A stretch of 64,000 nt of DNA from Acidobacteriota bacterium (GTDB lineage Bacteria; Acidobacteriota; Terriglobia; 2-12-FULL-54-10), in contig JACQGE010000126.1 in NCBI GenBank assembly GCA_016199675.1, positions 1,527-65,526 on the forward strand, given 5' to 3'. A program made the translations under genes and the position numbers. The notes below the pieces were generated by a model. It had not been told where the DNA came from. It ran no database searches and saw nothing but the letters and a program-made list of their open reading frames with translations. Positions 1,991-13,384 of the stretch are shown here, one piece after another. Each line of letters opens with the position of its first letter. Position 1 is the stretch's first letter.

Positions 1991-2695
1991 CTAACCCCCC
2001 TTAGGGAGGACCTTTTCAGGGTAGATCATCTCGGTAAAACGTGGGTCCTCCTCCAAATTGGAAAAGTCGGGATCTTTTTGTGCCAGGAATCGGTTCTGAG
2101 GATTGAGTTCAATCGCCTTCCGAAGATATTCCAATGCACCTTCAGCATTTTTCCGCAATGCCTGTGTCGTTGCCAATGCGTAATGTATATAGTCAGATTC
2201 AGGTGCTAATTTTAGTGCTTTTTTCAAAGATTCTTCCGCTTCTTCGAAGTTTCCTTGATTGGCTAATTGAATTCCGTGATTATAGAAATCATCCACGGTT
2301 TTCAAATGCAAAGTGGATTTCGATAGCCTCTGATTACAAATATGTAAATAGATTCGCGCACGTTCTGCCAAATCAGGCGCCGGGGCCGAAGATAGTCGCT
2401 CCAGAATCGCGCGCGCCTTAGCAAACTCATTATTATTGAAGAGCTTTACGGCATTCGCAAACTGTTCTAAAGCATTTTTGAAAGCAATTTCTTCTGAGGT
2501 TAGACGTCGCCGTGGGAGGGGTTTTATAATCTTTTCCTGGTACGAATCTTTGCTTCGAACGACCTTCTTAGCCGGATTCTTCTTAATGTTAATCTTTTTT
2601 TTCAAAGGCTTAGCAGTCTTAAGCGATTTTTTTTTCGAATTAGTTTGCTTACGGATTTCTTTGGAATGATTTTTTGCGGAATTAGTTTTTTTCAT
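1991..2695 (-). CDS. TPR-repeat protein with a lysine-rich basic N-terminal tail
   Basis: The first ~60 aa carry about 25% Lys/Arg (KKTNSAKNHSKEIRKQTNSKKKSLKTAKPLKKKINIKK). The C-terminal half holds several TPR-like helices (AxxxYxxGxxxxA patterns). Confidence 0.6.
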   Translation of the reverse strand: MKKTNSAKNHSKEIRKQTNSKKKSLKTAKPLKKKINIKKNPAKKVVRSKDSYQEKIIKPLPRRRLTSEEIAFKNALEQFANAVKLFNNNEFAKARAILERLSSAPAPDLAERARIYLHICNQRLSKSTLHLKTVDDFYNHGIQLANQGNFEEAEESLKKALKLAPESDYIHYALATTQALRKNAEGALEYLRKAIELNPQNRFLAQKDPDFSNLEEDPRFTEMIYPEKVLPKGG

Positions 2696-2871
2696 GCATC
2701 TAAAGTTTTTTGATTAATTTTTATAACAAAAGACTTAACAAAGTCAAGAAGCTTACAAGATATGAATTTCTAAAAAATCTCCAAAAGTTTCGAAATTGTT
2801 GCATAAATACAACACATCCTTTTTCATTACTATATGTAATATATTCATTATAAATAAATTATCATAAAGGA

Positions 2872-3825
2872 ATGGAAATTGCTTTTGCCTCTCAAGAAAT
2901 GATTTATCAACATACTATAGCTAAATCCGTTGAAATCTCTGGTATTGGGTTACATAGTGCTGTCTCTGTAAGGATTCGATTACTCCCTGGGACTGCCAAT
3001 AAGGGAATTATCTTCCGCAGGACGGACTTGGATAATTTTGAAATTCCCGCTTCCTGGAAGCATATTGCGCGCGTTAGTTATGCGACCAGCTTGATGCGCA
3101 AAGGAGTATTGATTTCTACGACTGAGCATATCCTTTCCGCACTGATGGCAATGGAGATTGACAATGCCGTCATCGAAATCAATTCCTTGGAATTGCCGAT
3201 CCTGGATGGCAGTTGCAAGCCGTATCTCGAGTTGCTCCAAAAAGCAGGGCGGCGGCGACAACGCACTCCGAGGACTTATTTGAAGATTCTGCGGCCGGTA
3301 GAGGTTGTGGAGGGAGCTAAGCGCATCGCCATCTTTTCTGCCGACAGTTTTCGCATCACCAGCAGCATTGATTTTCCGCATCCGCTGGTTGGCCATCAAT
3401 CCTTGGAGATGGAGATCACGCCGGAGGTTTATGCCCGTGAAATCGCGCCGGCGCGGACCTTTGGTTTTCTGGATCAGCTTTCACAAATGAAAGATATGGG
3501 GCTGATCCGGGGCGGCTCGCTGACCAACGCTGTAGTGTTCACACACGACTCGGTGATGAATGACGAAGGGCTGCGTTTTTCCGATGAGTGTTGCCGCCAC
3601 AAAGTTTTGGATTTGATTGGTGATCTGGCTTTGATAGGGTATCCGCTCCGAGCGCACGTGGTGGCCGAGCGGGCCGGACATGCCATGCACACAGCCTTGG
3701 TCTTGAAGCTGGTCAAGGATCGCTCGTTGTGGGAGTTGGTTACTGACGAGATACCTGCCGCTGCGCCATCCCTTTCCGCCCCGGAACTTGCCTTGGAAAC
3801 GGCCTCCCAGGCCGCCAACAGCTAA
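2872..3825 (+). CDS. lpxC: UDP-3-O-acyl-N-acetylglucosamine deacetylase
   Basis: The translation aligns along its length with LpxC: ISGIGLHS, TTEHILSAL, ARTFGF, GGSL, and HKVLDLIGDL, the zinc-site HKxLDxxGD motif. An AT-rich divergent promoter region lies upstream (2700-2870). Confidence 0.9.
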   Translation: MEIAFASQEMIYQHTIAKSVEISGIGLHSAVSVRIRLLPGTANKGIIFRRTDLDNFEIPASWKHIARVSYATSLMRKGVLISTTEHILSALMAMEIDNAVIEINSLELPILDGSCKPYLELLQKAGRRRQRTPRTYLKILRPVEVVEGAKRIAIFSADSFRITSSIDFPHPLVGHQSLEMEITPEVYAREIAPARTFGFLDQLSQMKDMGLIRGGSLTNAVVFTHDSVMNDEGLRFSDECCRHKVLDLIGDLALIGYPLRAHVVAERAGHAMHTALVLKLVKDRSLWELVTDEIPAAAPSLSAPELALETASQAANS

Positions 3826-4010
3826 AAAGTTAGTCACTTCTTTGATACCTGTGGCAAAAATGCCACACCACCAAAACGGCTTGCTCCCCCGGTTTCGTCA
3901 TGTGGTAGATGATAAACTTCCGCACTGCCGTAGGCCGGAGTGCAGCCGGAGGCGCAGCGACTCGCAACCCTCAAACGGTGCTAAGATTCTCGCTGGAGTG
4001 TTCCTGGTAA

Positions 4011-4511
4011 ATGCTAGAAAAAGCCTTACGCCGAAAACTTCCCAGCGGCTGTTTTCAGAATGTGTCAAGACAGCGTTCCGAAAACATGCGGGCCATAAAA
4101 GGAAGTTTGAACACTACTACTGAGCAGTGTTTGCGGCTTGCTCTTGTGAGGGCAGGATTGCACGGCTGGAAAGTGCGGCCGCGCGGTTTGCCTGGAAACC
4201 CGGATTTTGTTTTTCCCGAACGAAGAGTTGCCATCTTTGCAGACGGCTGCTTTTGGCATGGCTGTCCCCATTGCTGCCACGCTCCGGTTAGGAACAACTC
4301 CGCTTACTGGCGAGAAAAGATTAAGCGCAATCGGGCAAGAGATCAAAGCAATCGTCGGCGGTTGCAGACACAGGGGTGGCGAGTCCTTCGAATTTGGGAA
4401 CATGAGTTGAATAGATCACCTGATAAAGCAATCGGCCGCCTCCAATTCTTCCTGACGGCCAAAGGACGCAGGAATCTAGGAATGCGTATTAGATCAGTTC
4501 AATCGAAATAG
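4011..4511 (+). CDS. vsr: Very-short-patch repair endonuclease (T:G mismatch endonuclease)
   Basis: SENMRAIKGSLNTTTEQ...LPGNPDFVF...AIFADGCFWHGCPHC...YWREKIKRNRARD...GWRVLRIWEHEL matches the Vsr signature (NMxxIxxxNT, PGxPDxVF, F(V/A)DGCFWH). It is convergent with the methyltransferase operon. Confidence 0.8.
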   Translation: MLEKALRRKLPSGCFQNVSRQRSENMRAIKGSLNTTTEQCLRLALVRAGLHGWKVRPRGLPGNPDFVFPERRVAIFADGCFWHGCPHCCHAPVRNNSAYWREKIKRNRARDQSNRRRLQTQGWRVLRIWEHELNRSPDKAIGRLQFFLTAKGRRNLGMRIRSVQSK

Positions 4512-4535
4512 AGTTAGTCATTAGTGAGAGGTCAG

Positions 4536-5285
4536 TCAGGCCGAGGGGTACGAATCCATTTGCTTTTGAGTAAGGCTTTCCGGGAGGTTTTCGGGGCAAA
4601 TGTAGTCGTTAAAGAGAACACAAGGGACATGGACCTGGGGCTGCAAGCCCCCGTGTTTTGAGAAAGACCTCCTGCCGGCAGCAACGGATTTGTCGGCATC
4701 GCCCACGTTAAACTCGCTGTTCTTGCATTGGACTGAGACTATAGGCCGATGGGGTATCGTCCCAACTGGCAAAAGCCAGAGAATGTCAAAGCCGCCATCT
4801 CCTCTTCCCCTGCGCAACACGGGGCCATCGAAACCCAGGGTTTGCAGGTAATCGTTGAAATCCACTCTTGTTCTCCTAACATCCCTCGGGTCTCCAACTC
4901 GATGGATTGATCCCGTTGCGCGCCGGGCAAGACGCTCAGCCACACCGCACTCAAAGTCCCTCGATTTATCTCGCAAGGTTCGGATTTCTTTCATCGCTTT
5001 CACAAAGTTCAGAAAATCCGTGTCCACGGCGGTAAATCTGCCATCCTGGGGATTGTAATCAAATGGCAAGGGCGATCCTTTTCCCTTGAAATGGTTCTTC
5101 AATTCTTGCGTAGCAAGCCGCATAGCCTTTTCTGTGCTTGATGCACTCAGTTCCCTTCTGAGGTCATCCAGAAGAGGTGCTTGCTCCTCGTTCACTTGGA
5201 GATTGGAACGGGTCAACACGCGGGATTCCTGGGAACACAACTCCTCGGCAACAACCTCGAAGAACTTAAAGAGCGGGCTAGGCAT
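4536..5285 (-). CDS. Hypothetical protein with a PD-(D/E)xK-like core. Candidate restriction endonuclease of the adjacent methyltransferase operon.
   Basis: The C-terminal region contains GDGGFDILW followed about 15 aa later by VSVQCKNSE, a D...(E/Q)xK pattern. The start codon overlaps the stop of the ParB-like gene (ATGxxTAG), so it is the last gene of the M-ParB-X operon. It has no other recognisable family. Confidence 0.45.
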   Translation of the reverse strand: MPSPLFKFFEVVAEELCSQESRVLTRSNLQVNEEQAPLLDDLRRELSASSTEKAMRLATQELKNHFKGKGSPLPFDYNPQDGRFTAVDTDFLNFVKAMKEIRTLRDKSRDFECGVAERLARRATGSIHRVGDPRDVRRTRVDFNDYLQTLGFDGPVLRRGRGDGGFDILWLLPVGTIPHRPIVSVQCKNSEFNVGDADKSVAAGRRSFSKHGGLQPQVHVPCVLFNDYICPENLPESLTQKQMDSYPSA

Positions 5286-6321
5286 TCTTCGCCTTGAGAA
5301 AAGCTTTCACACTTGATTCAAAGTTCTGGAATGTTTTCAGAAGCTTTTCGGCATCGCTGTCTTTTTTCGACCGGAGGATTTTCTTTAAGAGGCGGTCTAA
5401 ATCCTTCGTGAGTTTGTGCAGCCGCTTTAGGCTCTCTTCCAGAGTGTCCACATAAAGTTCGGCTTCTTCTAAACTCTTCCGCTTGTGCAATACGTAACTG
5501 GCTTTTTCTGACCCTAACACCCTGGCTAGCTTGGCCAATTCACGTGTATCGCGGATCACTTTTCCCTGGGGATCGCGTTCGTTGCTGCCCGGTCTCTTCG
5601 GCCCGTACAAGTCATCCAGGAGACCCTTGAAATTCTGTTTGTTGAACCCTCGAATCTCCAGCGTCGTGGAATCAACGTCAAGTTGAAGGAAATTCTGTAC
5701 TCCGGTGCGCCCTAGCGCTTCACCCAGTACCCAGAAGTCCTCGTCGGGTGGCAAAGCCGCCCCCGCCAACTTAAGCAGCCGATAAGGAACCAAGAAACGT
5801 CGCGCCTGTTGCTTGGTGAGACGGACCTCCTTGATTACTCGATCGAGATTGCCGACCGATTTGATTTCTCGCTCTAAGAATTGTGCTTTACTCTTTGGCG
5901 GCCACTCTCGGAATCCAAACAGATGCCGCACCCCAAGGTAAACGCGCATCTCGTTTCGGAGCTGAGGATCAGGCTTTTTGGGAAAGACAATGACAGGGAT
6001 TTGGTCCAAGTCTGAGGTGCGTCCCTGATACTTGTCGAGATTAGCCCGGATTTCCCTTATGGCTGCTAAGCGGCGGTTGCCCTCGACGACAGCGAACCTG
6101 CCGTTTTTCTGCTTGACAACGAGAGGTTCATAATCAATGAAACCGTTTTCTAGGAGGGAGTCTACTAGTTCGGAAGCGTAGTGTGGCTTTCCATAGACGT
6201 ACCGCTGAATCTCATCTTGGCTCTTGCCAGACACATCACCGGCAAACCGGGGGTTTTCGGGATCAAAATCGAGAAGGTCAGGTGACAAATACTTCAATCT
6301 CGGCTGTTCTGACTTTGCCAT
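5278..6321 (-). CDS. ParB/Sulfiredoxin (ParB N-terminal nuclease/NTPase-like) domain protein with a C-terminal coiled-coil region
   Basis: FAVVEGNRRLAAIREI is the ParB/Srx GxRRxxA arginine-patch motif, followed by IPVIVFP. The C-terminal 120 aa are Lys/Glu/Leu-rich helix. The start was chosen at MAKSEQPRLKYL (ATG at 6321), 5 nt after the methyltransferase stop. The longer ORF-track start at 6465 would overlap the methyltransferase. Confidence 0.7.
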   Translation of the reverse strand: MAKSEQPRLKYLSPDLLDFDPENPRFAGDVSGKSQDEIQRYVYGKPHYASELVDSLLENGFIDYEPLVVKQKNGRFAVVEGNRRLAAIREIRANLDKYQGRTSDLDQIPVIVFPKKPDPQLRNEMRVYLGVRHLFGFREWPPKSKAQFLEREIKSVGNLDRVIKEVRLTKQQARRFLVPYRLLKLAGAALPPDEDFWVLGEALGRTGVQNFLQLDVDSTTLEIRGFNKQNFKGLLDDLYGPKRPGSNERDPQGKVIRDTRELAKLARVLGSEKASYVLHKRKSLEEAELYVDTLEESLKRLHKLTKDLDRLLKKILRSKKDSDAEKLLKTFQNFESSVKAFLKAKNA

Positions 6322-6326
6322 CGGAT

Positions 6327-7271
6327 TTACCAGAGGTCTCCCAAGTTTGAAACAACGGCTTTGAATAACGGTGGCGGAACAGCGTTGCCGATCAACTGGA
6401 ACCGTTCGCGCACCGTTCCTCTCTCCCATCTGAAATTTTTCGGGAATCCTTGGAGTGCTGCACATTCACGGTAGGACAATCTGCGCGCAGGTCCCTTTCG
6501 TGCGAACACCCACTTGTCCGTGTGGATTCGTTTCAGGGGAGGGCTCATTGGATGAAGCGGAACGTGCCGCCAGTGTCCCACAATGCAGGGACATGGTTCG
6601 TCCCAGTCGTGCCGCCGCCTCCTGGACAGGTAATACCAATGGAAGGGTTCGTCATTGAAATCCCCTTCCGGCCACTGCGGCATGCCGGCTAAAACTTCCT
6701 TCTGCGAAAGCGGACGGCGACCGGTTTCACTACCGTAGAGAGGCTTCGGAAATGTGTACTGGAAACTGATGTCTGACCGGATGCCAACAATGAAGATGCG
6801 TCGGCGCTGTTGTGCAACCCCATAATCTTGAGCGTCAAGCACCTGCCACTTGACACGGTAACCGGCCATTCGGTAGCGGTATAGCTGATTGTGCAGTAGC
6901 TTGCGATTCTCTCCGTAAAGCATCCCATTAACGTTTTCTACCGCGAACGCCCGTGGCAATACCGCACGCAGCACTCGGTCAAACTGCTGATACAGGAAGT
7001 TGATCGAATCACCCGTTTTGCGCCTTCCCCCTTGTGTAAAGCCTTGGCATGGATAGCAGCCCACGAGAAAATCCGCATCTGGGAAGTCAGCGAAGTCGAA
7101 GTCCTGGATGTCACCCTGTTCGATTACCGGTCCTATATTATCTTTGTAAGTCTGGCACGCCACCTCGTCAATATCATTGGCCCAAACGATGTGATGTCCA
7201 AGTTGCTTTATGGCAAAATCGGAACCGCCGCAACCACTGAACAGAGAAATCGTCTGGATTCGTTTCATCAT
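6327..7271 (-). CDS. DNA (cytosine-5)-methyltransferase
   Basis: The C5-MTase motifs are present in the canonical order: I LFSGCGG, IV GCYPCQGFT (PCQ), VI AVENV, VIII QQRRRIFIVG, and X GNAVPPPL at the C-terminus. The start was placed at MMKRIQTISLFSGCGG. The 58-aa upstream extension in the ORF track is unlikely to be real. Confidence 0.85.
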   Translation of the reverse strand: MMKRIQTISLFSGCGGSDFAIKQLGHHIVWANDIDEVACQTYKDNIGPVIEQGDIQDFDFADFPDADFLVGCYPCQGFTQGGRRKTGDSINFLYQQFDRVLRAVLPRAFAVENVNGMLYGENRKLLHNQLYRYRMAGYRVKWQVLDAQDYGVAQQRRRIFIVGIRSDISFQYTFPKPLYGSETGRRPLSQKEVLAGMPQWPEGDFNDEPFHWYYLSRRRRHDWDEPCPCIVGHWRHVPLHPMSPPLKRIHTDKWVFARKGPARRLSYRECAALQGFPKNFRWERGTVRERFQLIGNAVPPPLFKAVVSNLGDLW

Positions 7272-7589
7272 CAATCGAGCTTCTGCACGGTTCGACTTTC
7301 GAGGATCATACCAAATTCCTGTCTCTAAGCATAAACCAAAAGGCTTTCGTTGCGTTCGAGCGTCAACATTGCAAGAAATAGGCCGGTCAGACTCTCCGGC
7401 TTTGTAAGGCCTGGCTGTTGGAGTAAAAGTCGCTGCGCGGAGCACTGCGCTCCGGGCTTCGTCAGAGTCTGGATTAAGCCTCCGAACCGTTTTTCGGCAC
7501 GGTTAAAACCGTGCTTGACGGAGTTTCAAATTTCTTCTTTGAGAATTTCTCCTTATCAAACTGCGGAGTTGCGTTACACTTCCCCTTTT

Positions 7590-8804
7590 ATGAGCCAGAG
7601 GAAGAATCCCAACGAGTGTATTCCCCAAGGCTTTCTTTTTGCCGCTGAAGAAGGGGGCTTGCGGACCCACGGCAGCGGGCCGGACGTGGCCTTGATTTAT
7701 ACCGTCGCGCCCGCAAGGGTAGCCGCACTGTTCACCGCTAATCGAGTGAAAGCCGCTCCGATCCTGGTCTCTCAGGACCACCTGCGAGGCAGTCTCCGGA
7801 CGGCGCGAGCCATTGTGGTCAACGCTGGCAATGCGAATTGCGCTACGGGCGAATCGGGGATTCGCGCTGCCCGGCAATGCGCAACAGAAACGGCCCGACT
7901 GCTGAAGATACGCCCGAATCAGGTCTTGCTGGCCTCTACGGGCGTCATCGGCGTGCCCCTGAATGCGAGTGTCATCACCCGCATTCTGCCGTCGCTCGCC
8001 CGTCAACTGCATCCGGAGGGATACGTAGCCGCATCGCGGGCGATTTTAACGACCGATACCCGGCCCAAAGTTGCCGCCCGCAGCCTGCTGATTTCCGGCC
8101 GACGCATCACCATTCTGGGCATGGCCAAAGGCGCCGGAATGATCTATCCGCGAATGGCGACCATGCTGGGTTTTATTTTTACAGATGCCGCTGTCGAGCC
8201 GCCGTTTCTGCGGGCCGCCACGCGCCGCATGGGTGAGTTGAGCTTCAACCGCATCTCGGTGGATGGCGACACCTCGACGAACGACACCGTCTTTGTACTG
8301 GCCAACGGCATGGCTGGCAACAAACCCATCCAAGAAAAAAGTCCTGCCGGGAAGAAATTCTTAGAGGTTCTGACGGCAGTGGCGCAAGAGTTGGCCATTG
8401 AGATGGTCCGGGACGGGGAAGGTGCACGAAAACTAGCCGAAATCCGCGTGGAAGGAACCGTCACCGAAAAGCAGGCCGATGCCATCGCCCGCTCCATTGC
8501 CCTCTCTTCTTTGGTCAAGACCGCTCTGGCTGGCGCCGATCCGAACTGGGGCCGGATCCTGGCGGCGGCGGGCAATGCCGGAGTGGCGTTCGACCCACAT
8601 CACGTTGACATTTATCTGAATCGCACCCTGGTTTGCAAGAACGGCGTGGCGACCCATTTCAGCGAACCGACTCTCCAGCGTCAATTGCGCGCTAAAGAAG
8701 TCCTCATACGGGTCATCTTTAAACAAGGCCGTGCCCAGACCCGCTTTTGGACTTGCGATTTCACGGAAGAATACATCCGCATCAACGCCAGCTACCGCAC
8801 TTAG
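7590..8804 (+). CDS. argJ: Bifunctional glutamate N-acetyltransferase / amino-acid acetyltransferase
   Basis: The autoproteolytic site ATMLGFIFTDA, with its Thr nucleophile, and the C-terminus ...YIRINASYRT match ArgJ end to end. The start was set at MSQRKN (7590). The upstream 80 codons of the track ORF lie in the divergent intergenic region. Confidence 0.9.
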   Translation: MSQRKNPNECIPQGFLFAAEEGGLRTHGSGPDVALIYTVAPARVAALFTANRVKAAPILVSQDHLRGSLRTARAIVVNAGNANCATGESGIRAARQCATETARLLKIRPNQVLLASTGVIGVPLNASVITRILPSLARQLHPEGYVAASRAILTTDTRPKVAARSLLISGRRITILGMAKGAGMIYPRMATMLGFIFTDAAVEPPFLRAATRRMGELSFNRISVDGDTSTNDTVFVLANGMAGNKPIQEKSPAGKKFLEVLTAVAQELAIEMVRDGEGARKLAEIRVEGTVTEKQADAIARSIALSSLVKTALAGADPNWGRILAAAGNAGVAFDPHHVDIYLNRTLVCKNGVATHFSEPTLQRQLRAKEVLIRVIFKQGRAQTRFWTCDFTEEYIRINASYRT

Positions 8805-8952
8805 CGGACTGGTAAGCGAACCCATAAGCCCACAACACAAAGATAATGCCTGCCTTATGACCGCAGGGCCGAACACATCGCGGCTGCGAACAGCTCTTTT
8901 TCATTCGATTTTTCCTGCCCACTCCCATTGAAGCCGACTAAGATAAGCTCTC

Positions 8953-10080
8953 ATGTTCCTCTGCCCGAATTGTAATGAGCGGCTGGTGCGCACTGAAAAG
9001 GGCGATGAGGGTTTCTGGGTCTGCCCATCCTGCGGGGGACGGGCGGCCAATATTGTCGTGCTCCGCCGCACGGTCGCCCGGCAGGAAATTAATCGTTTGT
9101 GGGCATGCGTTCGGGAAGGCAAAACTGAACCTGGACGGCCCTGCCCCGCTTGTGAGCGGCCGATGGTGGTCATTCATACCGACGAATCGGTCGTCCAATC
9201 GCTGTCACTCGATGTCTGTACACGCTGTCAGTTCATCTGGTTTGACCCGAAAGAGTTCGAAGTATTGCCCCCTGCATCCCCGCCCCATAGGGTTGACGAA
9301 AAACAACTGCCCATGGAGGCGCGCCTCTTGCTGGCGAAATACGAAATCGAGCAAATTGACGATCAACTGCCTCTCGAACTCGACGAAGTTCCCCCGACTC
9401 CAGATTGGAAAACATTGCCAGCTTTCTTGGGTATGCCTGTCGAATATGAAAACCATGTACTGCAGAATCGGCCTTGGGCGACTTGGGTGCTGGCTACGGT
9501 GGTCAGCCTTTTCAGCTTTTTGGCGTTTCTAGACTTCGAAAACGCAGTCCGAGAATTTGCTTTGATCCCAGCCGAAGTGGGACGGTATTGGGGACTAACC
9601 CTGCTCACCGCGTTTTTCTTGCATGCCAACTGGCTTCATCTACTCGGTAATATCTATTTTTTGCTGGTCTTCGGCGATGATGTCGAAGAATATCTTGGCA
9701 AAAGCCGATATCTGTTGGTTCTGCTGCTAGCGATCGTGACAGGTGGCGTGCTGCACTCCCTTGCGCATCCAGATTCCACAACCCCTGTCGTCGGAGCCCG
9801 CGCCGGGATTTCAGGCATTCTGGTTTTTTATTGTTTACAGTATCCACGAGCGCGATTGGGGTTCCTGGTCCGCTATCTTTTCATTTTTCGATGGATTCGT
9901 CTGCGCGCCTGGATGTATATGCTTCTGTGGATTGTTCTCCAATCCCTGGGGGCTTTGCAACAATTGAGCGGGGTTACGCAGATTTCGTTCTTGGGCCACC
10001 TGGGAGGTGCAACAATCGGACTTTTATTTTGGCTATTGTGGAAGTGGGGCCTTCCTTCCCGACAAGAACATTATCATTAG
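8953..10080 (+). CDS. Rhomboid-family intramembrane serine protease with two N-terminal zinc-ribbon modules
   Basis: The N-terminus has CPNC...CPSC and CPAC...CTRC Cys pairs. The C-terminal half has 6 TM helices with GARAGISG (GxSG) and HLGGA (catalytic His), as in rhomboids. Confidence 0.75.
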   Translation: MFLCPNCNERLVRTEKGDEGFWVCPSCGGRAANIVVLRRTVARQEINRLWACVREGKTEPGRPCPACERPMVVIHTDESVVQSLSLDVCTRCQFIWFDPKEFEVLPPASPPHRVDEKQLPMEARLLLAKYEIEQIDDQLPLELDEVPPTPDWKTLPAFLGMPVEYENHVLQNRPWATWVLATVVSLFSFLAFLDFENAVREFALIPAEVGRYWGLTLLTAFFLHANWLHLLGNIYFLLVFGDDVEEYLGKSRYLLVLLLAIVTGGVLHSLAHPDSTTPVVGARAGISGILVFYCLQYPRARLGFLVRYLFIFRWIRLRAWMYMLLWIVLQSLGALQQLSGVTQISFLGHLGGATIGLLFWLLWKWGLPSRQEHYH

Positions 10081-10250
10081 CAAAAATTCGCACATTTGGT
10101 TGGGTCAAACTTCCCAAATCTTTTATGACATAAGAGTTTTATCTGTAATACATTCAAAAAATAAGAGTTAATTGTAATTTTTCATTTGAGTATTTGGAAC
10201 ATTAATTGCTCTTAAAAAAATGGAGGACTACACGAAAGGAGGATAATTAT

Positions 10251-11177
10251 ATGCTCCTGAAAAGTAGTCATTTACCGCATTCTGTCTATCTCCATTGGAA
10301 GCGATGGTTTTTTATTCTGGCAATGGTTCTGTTGTATTTATTCCTCTTGGTCAGTGGTGTAAAAGGCCAGCAGGGAATGCCGTGGCATTGGATGCATATG
10401 CCCAGGGCTCTTCAATCCTGGACTTCGGTAAAAATGAGTAGTCCTCCAGCGGCAGATTCCGAACTATTGATTACAGGAAAGAAGGTTTATCTCAACAATT
10501 GCGCGGCTTGCCATGGCGATATGGGTAAGGGAGACGGGAGATGGGCCAATTATCTGGTACCCCGGCCACGCAATTTCAGCCGCGGGATCTTCCGTTTTAA
10601 AAGCACTCCCAGCGGCACATTGCCCACCGATAATGATCTCTTCCGCACGATCTCCGCAGGTATTAACGCCACAGCAATGCCATCGTGGCAGTTTGTTCTT
10701 CCGGAAAAAGAACGGTGGGCGGTAGTCTCCTACTTGAAAACGCTTTGCAAGGATTTTGCAGAGGAAGCAGCGGGCAAGCCGATCATCCTAACTCCCAGTT
10801 CTGACATCACTCCAGGGCGAATGGTTCAGGAGGGAAAGGAAATTTTCCGTAAAAATTGCGTGGAGTGCCATGGGCCGGAAGGATACGGAGACGGGCCCTC
10901 CGCCCTGAATATGGAAGATTCTTTTGGCGATCCAATTGAGCCGCGCAACTTCCATCGAGCAGCAGAATTCAAAAGGGGCCATACGTTAGCCGATATCGCT
11001 TTGGTAGTAGCCACCGGCAATGATGGCACTCCCATGCCTTCATTTGATTTGGGGAAAGAGAACATCTGGAATGTGGCCAGCTTTGTCATGAGCCTGGCGA
11101 AAGAAAAGGAAGAAGGATCAGAGCCAAATGGTTACTGCCCGATGGGAATGGGGATGCGGATGGGAATGAAAAGATAG
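10251..11177 (+). CDS. Dihaem c-type cytochrome (class I), secreted or membrane-anchored
   Basis: Two CxxCH motifs are present (CAACHGDMGKGDG and CVECHGPEGYGDG), with an N-terminal hydrophobic segment. The ATG at 10251 is preceded by AAAGGAGGA, and an AT-rich promoter region lies at 10085-10240. Confidence 0.75.
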   Translation: MLLKSSHLPHSVYLHWKRWFFILAMVLLYLFLLVSGVKGQQGMPWHWMHMPRALQSWTSVKMSSPPAADSELLITGKKVYLNNCAACHGDMGKGDGRWANYLVPRPRNFSRGIFRFKSTPSGTLPTDNDLFRTISAGINATAMPSWQFVLPEKERWAVVSYLKTLCKDFAEEAAGKPIILTPSSDITPGRMVQEGKEIFRKNCVECHGPEGYGDGPSALNMEDSFGDPIEPRNFHRAAEFKRGHTLADIALVVATGNDGTPMPSFDLGKENIWNVASFVMSLAKEKEEGSEPNGYCPMGMGMRMGMKR

Positions 11178-11179
11178 CA

Positions 11180-11213
11180 CGGTTATGGCATGGCTGAACC
11201 CATGCCATAACGG
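11180..11213. terminator. Stem-loop between the convergent cytochrome c and BON genes. Possible bidirectional terminator.
   Basis: GTTATGGCATGG (11182-11193), loop CTGAAC, then CCATGCCATAAC (11200-11211) form a perfect 12-bp stem. There is no clear U-tract on either side. Confidence 0.35.
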
Positions 11214-11236
11214 TCTACACCAAAAGTGAAATTGTT

Positions 11237-11782
11237 CTAACTTCCTACTCTCAAATTGTTCGTTACCGAAAACACGCCGGAAATTCCTTGAACGCGTAAG
11301 TTGGCAATGTTCTTATCCGCCTCGCTATTAACGACACCCTCCAGAGTAACCGTGCCGTTTTTTACAATGATATGGATCGGCGGTACTGCGCCCATTCCGT
11401 AGCGAAATAACGGGCTGTCTTGGGAGAAAAGCGTCCAATAAGCAATTCGGCGTATCTGATCGTCCATGGGGGACAGCGGCAAGACTTCGATTTTATTGAC
11501 GACCTTGCTGACGCCTTCAATCCGTCCTACAACCTGCTCGGCGCTGGACTTCAGCGTCGGCTGCCTCACTTGGCCCGTGAGTATTACGACGTCACCGTCC
11601 AAACGATATTCCAGGTTGTCGAATACACTGTAAAAGGGTAGCGTCACAAGTTCATGACGCACTTCCCTCATCAAACGCGCCTGACCGCGGGGAGTAATCG
11701 GATGCTGAGCCGCCAATGGTTTTCCCAAAAACAATACAATCCCCATTACGACAATTTGTATGATTACCAATTTTCTTTTCAT
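11237..11782 (-). CDS. BON-domain (OsmY-like) periplasmic protein
   Basis: A signal peptide is followed by two BON-like repeats (V...V..G.VTL.G.V). The protein size is typical of OsmY-type proteins. Confidence 0.7.
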   Translation of the reverse strand: MKRKLVIIQIVVMGIVLFLGKPLAAQHPITPRGQARLMREVRHELVTLPFYSVFDNLEYRLDGDVVILTGQVRQPTLKSSAEQVVGRIEGVSKVVNKIEVLPLSPMDDQIRRIAYWTLFSQDSPLFRYGMGAVPPIHIIVKNGTVTLEGVVNSEADKNIANLRVQGISGVFSVTNNLRVGS

Positions 11783-11998
11783 GAGAGATTCCTCCTCTAA
11801 TGTGAGAAATGTCTATTAAATTTGATCGTTTTATGAACGATTAGGTTGTCTTTCAGCAAGATGATGAAAATGGAGGGTTTTTTGATGAGTTCTTGGAAGA
11901 TGGACCTCAGTGGATGAAGCCTCTATCGATTTTGAGGCAGTTACGGCACGCCTGAAGGCTTGCCCTACACAGTTATCCCACAGACTCTAAAGTCGTGC

Positions 11999-13384
11999 TC
12001 AGACCGTAGGCTTTGGCTTGATGTTCTGGTTCACTCGGAAAAAATTGTTCGGATCATATTTGGCTTTGATGACCGCCAGAGAGTCATAGCTGTCGCGGTA
12101 GGTCGCTTTTACGCGGTCCTCGCCTTCTTCCATCATGAAATTGACATACGCGCCGCCCGCAGAGTAGGGGTGCAGAGCTTCCCAATATTTCCTGGCCCAA
12201 TCTATTAAGCGTTCGTTGTTGGCAGGGTCAGGATCAACTCCAACGATGACCTCGGCCCAGGTTGTATCCCGGTAGTTCCAAGCAGTGTCCTTTTTGCTGA
12301 CACGGTGTACCGCGCCATTGACTGGATAGAGGTGCATGGTCGAATGCATGGAGGGAAGTTGGGAGCCATGTTCCACATGGAGCCGAATAGCCTCATCGTT
12401 TAACTCATTCACAAAATCAGCTTTCCAATACCACTGGAGACCCGGCGGGTAAAGCGGGTCGAACATGCTTTGCAGCGCCGGATAAGGCATGGGGCCTACG
12501 AAATCCAAGACGGGGGTCAAGAGTTTGCGAGCCGGCTTAAATACTTTCGCCGCCTTTTTCTCCGGGCCGCAGTAACACCAAACCACCCCACACACTTTCT
12601 TGTTGTGAAGATGTTCCGGAAAGGGAGGGGCGGGGGGCACGGTGAGAAAAGCGAAAAAGCCATTCAACTCCTCGGGCGCCTGCGTGATGAATTCGCGATA
12701 CCATCGCATCACTTCGGGAGCCTGGTCCAGGGTCCAAAACATGGGTCCGCCATGGACGGTGTGGATGGGATGGGCTTTGAAAACAAGAGAAGTGACCACG
12801 CCAAAATTCCCTCCGCCCCCCCGAATCGCCCAAAACAGGTCTTCATTTTGCTTGTTGCTGGCGGTGAGGAAACGGCCATCGGCGAGAACGAGGTCGGCGG
12901 AGATCAGATTGTCAATGGTCAGGCCACATTTGCGGGTGAGGTGGCCGAGGCCGCCGCCGAGTGTCAGGCCGCCAACACCGGTTGTCGAAATGATCCCGGC
13001 AGGCACAGCCAAGCCGAAGGCGTGGGTAGCGTGGTCTACATCGCCCCAAGTGCATCCGCCTCCGACCCGGACGGTTTTGGCTTTGGGGTCAACAAGGGTG
13101 TATCGAATCCGCGAGAGATCAATTACCAAACCATCATCGCAGATGCCCAGCCCTCCTGCGTTATGCCCGCCTCCTCGAATCGAAACCAGCAAGTTATTTT
13201 CTCGGCCAAAATTCACGGCGGCAATGACATCGGCAACGTCGGTACAGCGTGCGATCAGCAAGGGGCGCTTGTGAATCATCCCATTGTAGACTTTGCACGC
13301 TTCCTCATAATTCGGGGCATCGCGATCGATCAATTCTCCGCGCAGCTTTGCTTTTAATTGTCCCATTTCTGCTTTGCCGACCAT
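11999..13384 (-). CDS. FAD-linked oxidase, PCMH-type FAD-binding domain plus berberine-bridge-enzyme-like C-terminus
   Basis: The FAD-binding motif is RGGGHNAGGLGICDDGLVIDLSRI. The C-terminal YVNFMMEEGED...NNFFRVNQNIKP is the BBE-domain signature. The start was set at MVGKAEM, which has a GGGGGA RBS. Confidence 0.8.
   Translation of the reverse strand: MVGKAEMGQLKAKLRGELIDRDAPNYEEACKVYNGMIHKRPLLIARCTDVADVIAAVNFGRENNLLVSIRGGGHNAGGLGICDDGLVIDLSRIRYTLVDPKAKTVRVGGGCTWGDVDHATHAFGLAVPAGIISTTGVGGLTLGGGLGHLTRKCGLTIDNLISADLVLADGRFLTASNKQNEDLFWAIRGGGGNFGVVTSLVFKAHPIHTVHGGPMFWTLDQAPEVMRWYREFITQAPEELNGFFAFLTVPPAPPFPEHLHNKKVCGVVWCYCGPEKKAAKVFKPARKLLTPVLDFVGPMPYPALQSMFDPLYPPGLQWYWKADFVNELNDEAIRLHVEHGSQLPSMHSTMHLYPVNGAVHRVSKKDTAWNYRDTTWAEVIVGVDPDPANNERLIDWARKYWEALHPYSAGGAYVNFMMEEGEDRVKATYRDSYDSLAVIKAKYDPNNFFRVNQNIKPKPTV

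Follow-up and report, generated by a model that had tools for sequence, protein, structure and literature searches.

What kind of system is encoded by the compact gene block lying between lpxC and argJ in this acidobacterial genome? The original prediction, made on the window (the whole analysed stretch of 64,000 nucleotides), described a DNA-modification or defence island inserted between these two genes, comprising a C5-cytosine methyltransferase (M), a ParB-like protein (B) and a PD-(D/E)xK-like protein (C), with a convergent vsr gene (V). The gene map bore out the flanks, the M-B-C gene set and the orientation of vsr (Table 1). The junctions were also exactly as described, with 5 nt between the stop of M and the start of B (6322-6326) and an 8-nt overlap between B and C (5278-5285, ATGCCTAG). 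The start of B was placed at the ATG at 6321, in agreement with its homologues, the open reading frame itself reaching 6465; M starts at MMKRIQ (7271), in a frame reaching 7445. On balance, we lean towards the view that the four genes form a mobile, NTP-gated, restriction-modification-like defence cassette.

Table 1. Features of the lpxC-argJ region (positions in the window).
Feature	Position	Strand	Description
lpxC	2872-3825	+	flank of block
lpxC-vsr intergenic region	3826-4010		holds left inverted-repeat arm and L038-shared blocks
vsr (V)	4011-4511	+	166 aa; Vsr very-short-patch mismatch endonuclease; convergent to M-B-C
gene C, open frame	4536-5285	-	249 codons, 249 aa
gene C, restored extent	4489-5285	-	winged-helix and Mrr-like domain, putative nuclease; frameshifted
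gene B	5278-6321	-	ParB-type protein, 347 aa
M	6327-7271	-	C5-cytosine DNA methyltransferase, 314 aa
M-argJ intergenic region	7272-7589		between divergent M and argJ starts
argJ	7590-8804	+	flank of block

All catalytic motifs of M could be read in its translation (FSGCGG, PCQ, ENV, QRRR and GNAVPP). Judged by its matches to PF00145 (2e-61, 208.8 bits, cutoff 22) and TIGR00675 (1.5e-57, 195.7 bits, cutoff 100.65), M belongs to the C5-cytosine DNA methyltransferases (PF00145/Dcm superfamily). Among solved structures, M.HaeIII (1dct, 3e-48) was the best relative along the whole protein, target-recognition region included, and the best PADLOC profile was DruM2 (5e-100). Druantia type II was nevertheless rejected, as the island contains no large helicase and no DruF/G, and B and C were unmatched. 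By the same kind of profile evidence (TIGR00632, 1e-33, 115.8 bits, cutoff 97.85; PF03852, 9e-18, 64.3 bits, cutoff 27; PADLOC Vsr, 4e-23), the product of V is a Vsr very-short-patch repair endonuclease. At most loci a vsr gene lies next to M-B-C, in one of three orientations, and locus L011 shows the same convergent arrangement as the window; Vsr is thus a member of the cassette and not a separate neighbour. Identity of M across most cassette loci was 63-78%, against 34-65% for B and C, and these values indicate a stronger constraint on M. In two loci (L028 and L034), B-C is partnered by a second C5-methylase only 31% identical to M, and this exchange was accompanied by no extra divergence in B or C. 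No avoidance of GGCC was detected in the window.

Protein B begins with a ParB/Srx NTP-binding fold, continues with a helix-turn-helix (HTH)-like middle domain and ends in a helical hairpin. The boxes NPR and EGNRRLAA are invariant in the family. With both the Srx-like N-terminal fold and the Box II arginine motif GxxRxxA, B is of the canonical ParB type and not of the DUF262 type. Indeed, it gave no DUF262 match, its motif being GNRR, and no stretch passed for DGQHR (TIGR03187, E 0.023, C-terminal part). It is predicted to bind an NTP, probably CTP, the ligand of the ParB-CTPase fold not being predictable from sequence (PMC12704722). Along most of its length B matched phrog_3694 (5e-39, positions 4-364 of 376). 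Its best PADLOC match was PDC-M38A (1e-17, positions 60-351 of 715), which extends past the ParB domain. The N-terminal domain itself matched the PD-Lambda-5_A ParB domain (6e-10) better than Pfam ParB_N (0.007). Neither in the window nor at the inspected loci does a ParA-type gene flank B, and a ParABS partition system, with an adjacent ParA ATPase and a parS site, was rejected on the ParA count.

Protein C displays an N-terminal winged helix followed by an Mrr-like E...DGGFD...QCK domain. Across its family the pattern E...DGGxD...QCK...ND is invariant, including E112, D167, Q186 and K188. In the structure model, the winged helix is followed by an alpha-beta-beta-beta-alpha-beta order, the C-terminal half being unreliable (pLDDT <50). 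Taken together, the winged helix, the motif pattern and the modelled secondary-structure order correspond to the Mrr architecture. The statistics are less favourable: E values against Pfam Mrr_cat (PF04471) were 0.056 for the best of 37 C members and 0.13 for the family consensus, neither reaching the gathering score, and hhalign against an Mrr alignment aligned the FE, GDGGxD and VQxK motifs at a non-significant E of 0.1. No non-nuclease family assignment was found for C either. Thus, of the initial description as PD-(D/E)xK-like, the motifs and topology stood and statistical support for the nuclease fold did not; on motifs and topology, C is a putative nuclease.

The open frame at 4536-5285 does not represent an intact gene C. 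The C terminus of the C family is nearly invariant (FVPLGLTDL...ELI, then the stop), and in the window the letters for this tail (FVPLGLTDLSLMTNSISIELI, then the stop) occupy 4489-4554, out of frame with the rest of the gene. This implies, from the reading frames, a 1-nt deletion in gene C near 4555-4556. Once restored, the gene would run into the 3' end of vsr; the same overlap is present in L011, the closest relative. Since the conserved tail is lost through the frameshift, the restriction half is probably disabled in this genome, leaving M and Vsr.

The neighbourhoods of homologues were surveyed, and co-conservation of the ParB-like protein with methylase and C was observed. M-B-C was present in 24 of the 25 genome loci found via gene C (the lone exception holding only a fragment of C), in all four distinct metagenomic contexts examined and, in remote form, in 46 of 69 phage loci. 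The genome loci span at least six phyla, most with Vsr, and in unrelated genomic contexts their genes are spaced by 4-7 nt gaps or overlap by 8-20 nt. The triad is thus no chance neighbourhood. Neighbours at other loci include toxin-antitoxin genes, integrases and other defence genes, and cassettes were found on prophages, plasmids and islands. The cassette is mobile and has spread horizontally across phyla.

The window copy is a single chromosomal copy beside housekeeping genes. An imperfect inverted repeat has its left arm at 3925-3962, in the lpxC-vsr gap, and its right arm at 7428-7465, in the M-argJ gap. Two short blocks (3844-3868 and 3920-3934) are shared with the region downstream of lpxC in relative L038 and mark the left junction of the variable segment. 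The cassette promoter is presumably located in 7272-7589, where no consensus sigma-70 site was found on the minus strand, an absence that is uninformative for Acidobacteria. The closest copy of the cassette (73% DNA identity) lies in an unrelated context, and in the closest lpxC relative this position is taken by a different cassette; therefore the cassette is not a core block of this locus. Of the proposed insertion, the flanks were confirmed and the event itself we infer, lpxC-argJ adjacency having been seen in none of 15 relatives.

Remote relatives of B were also detected in 69 viral contigs, with a C homologue (family D, hhalign 92.6-94.8%) downstream of them. A C5-methylase directly follows B-D in the 46 contigs mentioned above, 41 of them with the window's own M family: 34 in convergent order and 7 on the same strand (6 with Vsr). 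The other 5 carry another C5-methylase. In nine phage B-D loci no methylase was detected. Members of family D measure about 310-370 aa and usually lack the QxK lysine, giving AQCGCS. The PHROGs families phrog_3694 (B-type) and phrog_3984 (D-type), both annotated as of unknown function, form such a B-type then D-type module, with adjacency kept in about 50 loci. C gave no direct match to phrog_3984, the link running via hhalign to family D, and with that link the B-C pair was assigned to this module.

Coliphage Wphi carries one of these loci. Its orf98-orf96-mth block consists of B-D with a convergent M and no Vsr. Full-length identity between Mth and M is 49%, gp98 aligns with B across 359 aa at 27% identity (E 2e-25), and gp96 is a member of family D. 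The three homologous families and the compact three-gene block are shared with the cassette, whereas the order differs (B-D with convergent M, not M-B-C) and Vsr is absent. In the phage genome the three genes sit between gpA and the cos/portal end, a region known as a P2 hotspot holding old, tin and other defence systems (PMC9519451). Of the complete E. coli genomes, about 2% contain the block, the laboratory strain E. coli W among them. No paper on orf98-orf96-mth was found in the literature.

The original prediction had recognised no named system with an M-ParB-nuclease makeup, and none was found here. Judged by profile comparison, the nearest systems are PD-lambda-5 and PDC-M38. PD-lambda-5 (Vassallo et al. 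2022) is a validated prophage-borne anti-phage system that includes a predicted methylase; its authors call it "compacted RM+Abi" (PMC9519451). PD-Lambda-5_A profiles match the N-terminal ParB domain of B and of Wphi gp98 (3e-24), but only over their first ~80-160 positions; PD-lambda-5 has two genes, whereas the methylase of the cassette is a separate C5 enzyme. Membership was rejected, with A partly matched and no match to the B-component profile for C, D or neighbours; none of the PADLOC profiles, this one included, matched C or D. PDC-M38A was the best PADLOC match not only of B but also of Wphi gp98 (9e-25) and of plasmid relatives; only about positions 60-351 of its 715 match, the other PDC-M38 components gave no match, and no description of PDC-M38 was found in the literature. 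A 2013 survey (Anantharaman et al.) had already described operons in which a ParB protein and a DNA methylase are joined by an effector, HEPN MAE_28990 (PMC3710099). There the effector is a HEPN RNase and not of the C/D family.

Compared with type II C5 restriction-modification systems with Vsr (M.HaeIII/BspRI-type; Dcm-Vsr), the cassette has an M.HaeIII-like methylase with an adjacent Vsr and is likewise compact, mobile and horizontally spread, but two extra proteins, one of them a predicted NTP-binding ParB-type protein, take the place of one R subunit. A classical type II system was rejected: the methylase is present, but no restriction endonuclease family in Pfam, NCBIfam or PADLOC matched B or C. 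ParB/KorB/Noc clamps share with B the fold, the Box I/II motifs, a co-linear HTH region and the order N-terminal domain, HTH, C-terminal dimerisation-like helices, whereas B has no ParA and its constant partners are the methylase and the C/D family. The comparison with GmrSD and SspE held as an analogy only; kinship to DUF262 did not. GmrSD, BrxU and SspE pair a ParB-superfamily NTPase with a nuclease in modification-aware defence, and in SspE sensing of the host's own mark is coupled to nuclease action (PMC13251355, PMC12065111). B differs by its GNRR box, HTH and helical tail and by lacking the DGQQR motif, C is not HNH/DUF1524, and B and C are separate polypeptides. Membership of GmrSD/SspE/BrxU was rejected for want of DUF262 or DUF1524 matches.

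Under the favoured reading, the M.HaeIII-like M would mark host DNA at a short site (GGCC-like being a guess), and Vsr would repair the T:G mismatches arising by deamination of M-made 5-methylcytosine, lowering the mutational cost of M. The translationally coupled B and C would form the restriction half. B may act as an NTP (probably CTP) switch that uses its HTH to bind DNA and its helical tail to dimerise, and that closes or slides on DNA; C would be a nuclease recruited or licensed by B on DNA without M's mark. A methylation-reading subunit and a defence phenotype are likewise expected of such a cassette. We counted in favour of this reading the co-conservation in unrelated genomes and phage contigs, the defence-hotspot context of Wphi, the constraint and catalytic motifs of M, the fold and invariant arginine box of B and the Mrr architecture of C. 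Precedents for a ParB fold with methylase and effector are PD-lambda-5 (PMC9519451) and the HEPN MAE_28990 operons (PMC3710099), and for a ParB protein activating a DNA-modifying enzyme, the ParB-dependent 5mYOX (PMC13229309). We counted against it the lack of a significant nuclease family and the unreliable C-terminal model for C, and the mostly missing QxK lysine in family D, unusual for an active PD-(D/E)xK site. The methylase swap fits poorly with B-C and M recognising one and the same sequence, and the nine phage loci without methylase, the absent GGCC avoidance and the frameshifted window copy were also counted against it.

It is unlikely, in our estimate, that B-C is instead a modification-dependent (type IV-like) module of the Mrr/MspJI kind directed against foreign modified DNA, M's mark being uncut and M no protective partner. 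C does align motif for motif with E. coli Mrr (winged helix, then E...DGG(I/F)D...Q-x-K), although not significantly, and C always occurs with B. The Mrr-like, modification-dependent MspJI is also flanked by C5-methylase and vsr genes, and about half of its family lies beside 5mC methylases (PMC2938202). In the type IV systems GmrSD and BrxU, a ParB-fold NTPase works with a nuclease (PMC4619093, PMC12065111), and B-C tolerates the methylase exchange in L028 and L034. But the M gene is intact, shows the highest conservation in the cassette and is coupled in translation to B, and the same methylase family accompanies even 25%-identical phage versions, an association far tighter than the dispensable one of MspJI.

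We regard as quite unlikely a module for epigenetic regulation, self-protection or anti-restriction carried by mobile elements, in which B would be a methylase accessory (a clamp loading or activating M) and C a DNA-binding regulator or adaptor, on the model of ParB-methylase fusions and ParB-dependent dioxygenases. The resemblance of the B and gp98 N-termini to PD-Lambda-5_A rather than ParB_N fits this, as do the predicted methylase of that system (PMC9519451), the frequent fusion of phage ParB-CTPase folds to DNA methylases (PMC12704722), a phage thymidine dioxygenase whose activity requires a ParB-like protein (PMC13229309), the putative status of C as a nuclease and the missing lysine in most of family D. 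But B overlaps C, not M, and phage M is usually on the strand opposite to B-D; therefore the tight stoichiometric pair is B-C/D. Moreover, the invariant acidic and Q residues of C/D point to an enzyme and not an adaptor, and the P2 hotspot location fits immunity (PMC9519451). Finally, a maintenance or addiction element, in which a ParB-like protein for centromere binding or silencing would, with its partner, stabilise or regulate a mobile element and M/Vsr would be an independent passenger, is very improbable: B resembles full-length segregation and regulatory ParB/KorB/Noc proteins and cassettes ride on prophages, plasmids and islands, but no ParA accompanies B in inspected loci, the window copy is single and chromosomal beside housekeeping genes, and what constantly accompanies B is a methylase and the C/D family.

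A more far-reaching version of the restriction-modification-like reading is possible but doubtful: a new NTP-dependent restriction-modification class, extending from P2-like coliphages such as Wphi to soil Acidobacteria, in which a canonical CTP-gated ParB clamp would replace the helicase or translocase for an Mrr-like nuclease, and self DNA would be marked by a dedicated methylase of the M.HaeIII-like kind. The clamp would then supply long-range communication or a licensing step.

CTP-switch ParB clamps act in chromosome segregation, nucleoid occlusion and transcription control. If the proposed mechanism is true, the ParB fold would gain a new use, regulating a restriction system as one of its subunits, and restriction-modification-like systems a new way of coupling DNA scanning to cleavage. 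The cassette is neither rare nor exotic, occupying the P2 hotspot in Wphi and occurring in E. coli at the frequency given above; the hypothesis is therefore directly testable by standard phage and plasmid assays. It would also provide a function for phrog_3694 and phrog_3984 and explain many C5-methylases now annotated as orphans.

In this window, which derives from an Acidobacteria metagenome-assembled genome (MAG), the interval between lpxC and argJ encodes a C5-cytosine methylase (M), a ParB-like protein (B) and a nuclease-like candidate (C), which form a triad, and a Vsr protein (V), which completes the cassette. The ORF list and the sequence show that M and B are separated by 5 nt and that B and C overlap by 8 nt, both exactly as stated in the original prediction. 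Among the identities proposed there for the island proteins, those of M and Vsr were clear in profile searches, whereas B was matched weakly in Pfam and better in PADLOC, and C found no match. The island is not distinct from its surroundings in base composition (GC 0.48-0.55). Elsewhere in the window, GC dips to 0.32-0.39 at 2251-3000, against the usual 0.5-0.6; this zone is the divergent start region between a lysine-rich TPR gene (1991-2695, - strand) and lpxC.

Genes of the island and its flanks, with window coordinates and the basis of each assignment.
Feature	Position	Strand	Basis
lpxC	2872-3825	+	ORF list and sequence; LpxC profile 4e-100
vsr	4011-4511	+	TIGR00632 1e-33, above its cutoff
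gene C (open frame)	4536-5285	-	ORF list and sequence; no profile match
gene B	5278-6321	-	Pfam ParB_N 0.007; PADLOC PDC-M38A 1e-17; PD-Lambda-5_A 6e-10
methylase M	6327-7271	-	PF00145 2e-61, C5-methylase
argJ	from 7590	+	ArgJ profile 5e-140

There are 192 homologues of C (about 261 aa), all without annotation, and 631 of B. In contigs encoding C homologues, the gene order is M (311 aa), B (about 350 aa) and C (about 261 aa), with gaps of 4-7 nt or overlaps of 8-20 nt at the junctions. The contexts of these triads are mutually unrelated, and toxin-antitoxin genes or integrases often adjoin them. A genome scan with one genome per species yielded 25 cassette loci, distributed over Acidobacteriota, Verrucomicrobiota, Bacteroidota, Planctomycetota and Betaproteobacteria, with further copies in a deltaproteobacterium, a myxobacterium (Kofleriaceae) and one bin labelled Bifidobacteriaceae. 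The expected co-conservation of M, B and C was confirmed by an ORF and phmmer survey in 24 of these loci, the remaining one holding a C fragment only. Vsr adjoins the triad in most of the 25, either on the same strand after C, convergent, or divergent upstream. Identity across loci is 63-78% for M and 34-65% for B and C. Gene content and conservation of the cassette, and the folds of M, V and B, are matters of observation.

The closest copy of the cassette (L011), found in another Acidobacteria MAG, is 73% identical to the window at the DNA level. Homology spans 7253 to 4015, its ends coinciding exactly with the starts of M and vsr, and vsr is convergent as in the window, with unrelated flanking genes. 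The unit of transfer is therefore the four-gene cassette M-B-C-V. At two loci (L028 5533-8771, from a Planctomycetaceae MAG, and L034 5584-8585, from a Kofleriaceae MAG), B and C are joined to another, larger C5-methylase of 451-468 aa that is 31-32% identical to M; B and C show no extra divergence there, and Vsr was not detected at either locus.

Alignment with 36 homologues showed that the C protein of the window, identical to NCBI protein HY313_07850, ends early, without the nearly invariant tail FVPLGL(T/S)DL...I. Three-frame translation downstream revealed the missing tail, FVPLGLTDLSLMTNSISIELI*, in a different frame at 4489-4554. The reading frame is broken by one missing base near 4555-4556, right after ...LTQKQM, and a 12-nt in-frame insertion lies just upstream. 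The restored gene would have about 265 codons and reach 23 nt into the 3' end of vsr; intact C in L011 overlaps vsr likewise. The open frame first taken as gene C does overlap B as described, but it is a frameshifted gene and not an intact one. Since there is no long homopolymer in the sequence at the site, the 1-nt deletion may be genuine rather than an assembly error, in which case the nuclease-like C is probably disabled in this organism. Split or shortened B or C frames beside a full-length M were also seen in other MAG copies (L024, L025, L027, L035), which suggests either that the non-methylase genes decay repeatedly or that the assemblies contain errors.

The insertion had been expected to show as lpxC-argJ adjacency in relatives. 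This was not the case: argJ lay within 7 kb downstream of lpxC in 0 of 15 metagenomic LpxC relatives, and no empty lpxC-argJ site was found among them. The closest lpxC relative (L038), with an LpxC 90% identical and the same upstream synteny CofD-TPR-lpxC, carries at the same spot (8272-12119, contig Ga0156222_1059) a different triad, composed of an N6/N4 methylase, a ParB_N protein significant in Pfam (1e-14) and a protein of 540 aa that belongs to no known family. This block is a second, unrelated methylase-ParB-X architecture. Two possible HD-like motifs, LFHDRGY and MFHDQHC, were read by eye in the 540-aa protein. A 20-nt inverted repeat, 95% complementary, brackets the L038 cassette (8035-8054 and 12241-12260), with extra partial copies at 12195-12225. 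In the next lpxC relative (L039), this place is occupied by a GGDEF gene and an IstB-like gene. Homology between the window and L038 stops at the lpxC stop, except for short blocks at 3844-3868 and 3920-3934. Therefore, what lies downstream of lpxC varies within this lineage, and a methylase-ParB-X cassette has arrived there twice.

The intergenic regions flanking the window island contain a 38-nt inverted repeat, 74% complementary (3925-3962 and 7428-7465). It was rejected as a dispersed REP-like element, with no further copy in the window and none in L011, and could be an older intergenic palindrome whose arms were split, or a chance occurrence. No tRNA gene was found in the window and no Rfam family in its first 20 kb; a tRNA-linked integration signal is absent.

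A profile of B, built from the window family and distant phage and plasmid members, matched solved chromosomal ParB, Spo0J and Noc proteins (4umk, 5e-5). The segment EPL-V...EGNRRLAA of B aligned with QPVLV...AGERRLRA of solved ParB-type proteins, and a second segment, below threshold, was co-linear with the ParB HTH. The motifs NPR, EGNRRLAA and G..H are invariant in 38 members whose identity is only about 25%. The structural model (pLDDT 86) predicts two long helices at the C-terminal end. Judged by these profile matches and motifs, B is a canonical ParB-type protein and not one of the DUF262/GmrS type.

PDB searches with the single sequence and with the profile of C gave no match, and the AF2 model is poor, with a pLDDT of 59 overall and under 50 at residues 172-249, its usable part being the winged-helix half; in the low-confidence half the predicted order is alpha-beta-beta-beta-alpha (pLDDT below 50). 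The invariant residues are E112 (in DFEC), D163-G-G-x-D167, Q186-C-K188 and N226-D227. In hhalign these motifs align one by one with those of E. coli Mrr (FE..., GDGGIDG, VQAK) at a non-significant E of 0.1; neither Mrr alone nor a shallow Mrr-domain alignment (Neff about 2-3) gave a significant match. Pfam Mrr_cat against the C family was likewise non-significant (E 0.056-0.13), and an exhaustive C-profile HMM search of 1.84 billion representatives recovered the family itself only and nothing that connects it to a known nuclease family. The proposed PD-(D/E)xK-like nuclease character of C is therefore inferred from its Mrr-like motifs and architecture.

C itself does not occur in IMG/VR. Relatives of B that are distant but full-length (25-32% identity) were found in 72 viral contigs and also in plasmids, and in about 50 loci the next gene, adjacent or overlapping, encodes a protein of 305-365 aa (D) homologous to C (hhalign 94.8%, E 5e-8; second run 92.6%, E 5e-7). 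The alignment covers residues ~48-195 of C, including the FE, GDGG(L/F)D and QC motifs; most D proteins have AQCGCS in place of the QxK lysine. In PHROGs, B corresponds to phrog_3694 (5e-39, full length) and D to phrog_3984, both of unknown function there. We searched all ORFs of 69 viral loci with a B-like gene. B-D is followed by a convergent methylase of the window M family in 34 loci, and B-D-M lies on one strand in 7, with Vsr in 6 of them. Another C5-methylase accompanies B-D in 5 loci; B-D stands alone in 9 and B alone in 9; in the other 5 the methylase is elsewhere or the locus ends. The methylase sits downstream of D, mostly on the opposite strand, and an apparent scarcity of methylases near phage B-D was a misleading effect of viewing the region upstream of B.

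The P2-like coliphage Wphi has a B-like orf98 (27% identity, 2e-25), an orf96 of family D and mth, whose product is 49% identical to M, between replication gene A and the cos/portal end (L125 96-3266; NC_005056.1 29419-32589). In P2 this position is a hotspot, occupied by old, tin and a number of recently discovered defence systems (PMC9519451). Of 5,426 complete E. coli genomes, 104-140 carry the same 3.2-kb block (104 at 99% identity or more, 36 further ones at 90-95%), including E. coli W (NC_017635.1 4338703-4341873), under the generic annotation 'ParB N-terminal domain-containing protein | hypothetical protein | DNA cytosine methyltransferase'.

All C5-methylase motifs are present in M. 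Among solved structures, M.HaeIII is the best full-length relative (3e-48), while M.HhaI aligns with the N-terminal 178 residues only. Because the M.HaeIII match includes the variable target-recognition region, a GGCC-like site is a reasonable guess for M. GGCC avoidance is unremarkable in the 64-kb window (obs/exp 0.87), and palindrome statistics give this site no support.

The cassette is most likely an R-M-like immunity and addiction module, to judge from its genes and their distribution: the methylase is co-inherited with two genes across changes of gene order, strand and phylum, Vsr was recruited repeatedly, the cassette lies in a defence hotspot and beside toxin-antitoxin genes, and M is more strongly conserved than B and C. 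In such a module M would be the self-marking enzyme, Vsr would provide the repair offsetting 5mC deamination, and restriction would fall to the tightly coupled B-C pair. B would act as a ParB-type NTP switch that binds DNA via its HTH and possibly clamps or slides; C would be a winged-helix and Mrr-like effector, recruited or licensed by B on DNA without the mark. The parts we infer are nuclease activity, NTP gating and the reading of methylation. Published precedents make this scheme plausible: PD-lambda-5 is a validated prophage system with a methylase (PMC9519451), operons combining a ParB protein with a DNA methylase and a HEPN effector are on record (PMC3710099), a phage dioxygenase requires a ParB-like activator (PMC13229309), and SspE senses PT (PMC13251355).

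Four points argue against the R-M-like reading and keep three alternatives alive. The nuclease fold of C is predicted and unproven; most D proteins lack the QxK lysine; the 31%-identical C5-methylase paired with B-C at two loci is odd if B-C reads the sequence of M; and nine phage loci have B-D without a methylase. B-C/D may be a modification-dependent module of the MspJI kind; MspJI, too, has a C5-methylase and a vsr gene as neighbours (PMC2938202). Alternatively, B may serve the methylase and not the nuclease, as ParB-methylase fusions would parallel (PMC12704722). A maintenance role of the B-C pair for a mobile element is less likely.

Compared with known systems, the cassette differs from classical type II R-M in having three components and no REase family, and from GmrSD/SspE in lacking DUF262 and DUF1524. 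It falls outside PD-lambda-5, with which B shares the ParB N-terminus of the A profile only, and outside Druantia II, matched through the methylase only. It resembles the PADLOC candidate PDC-M38 in one protein and belongs with the unnamed two-gene phage family phrog_3694 + phrog_3984. Literature searches (PDC-M38; ParB with Vsr, Dcm or Mrr; Wphi methyltransferase) returned no description of the triad. We regard the cassette as a probable defence module linked to a methylase and organised around a ParB-fold NTPase, and there is a real chance that a ParB clamp regulating restriction would be a new mechanism. The homologous copies in E. coli W and phage Wphi make the cassette unusually testable.
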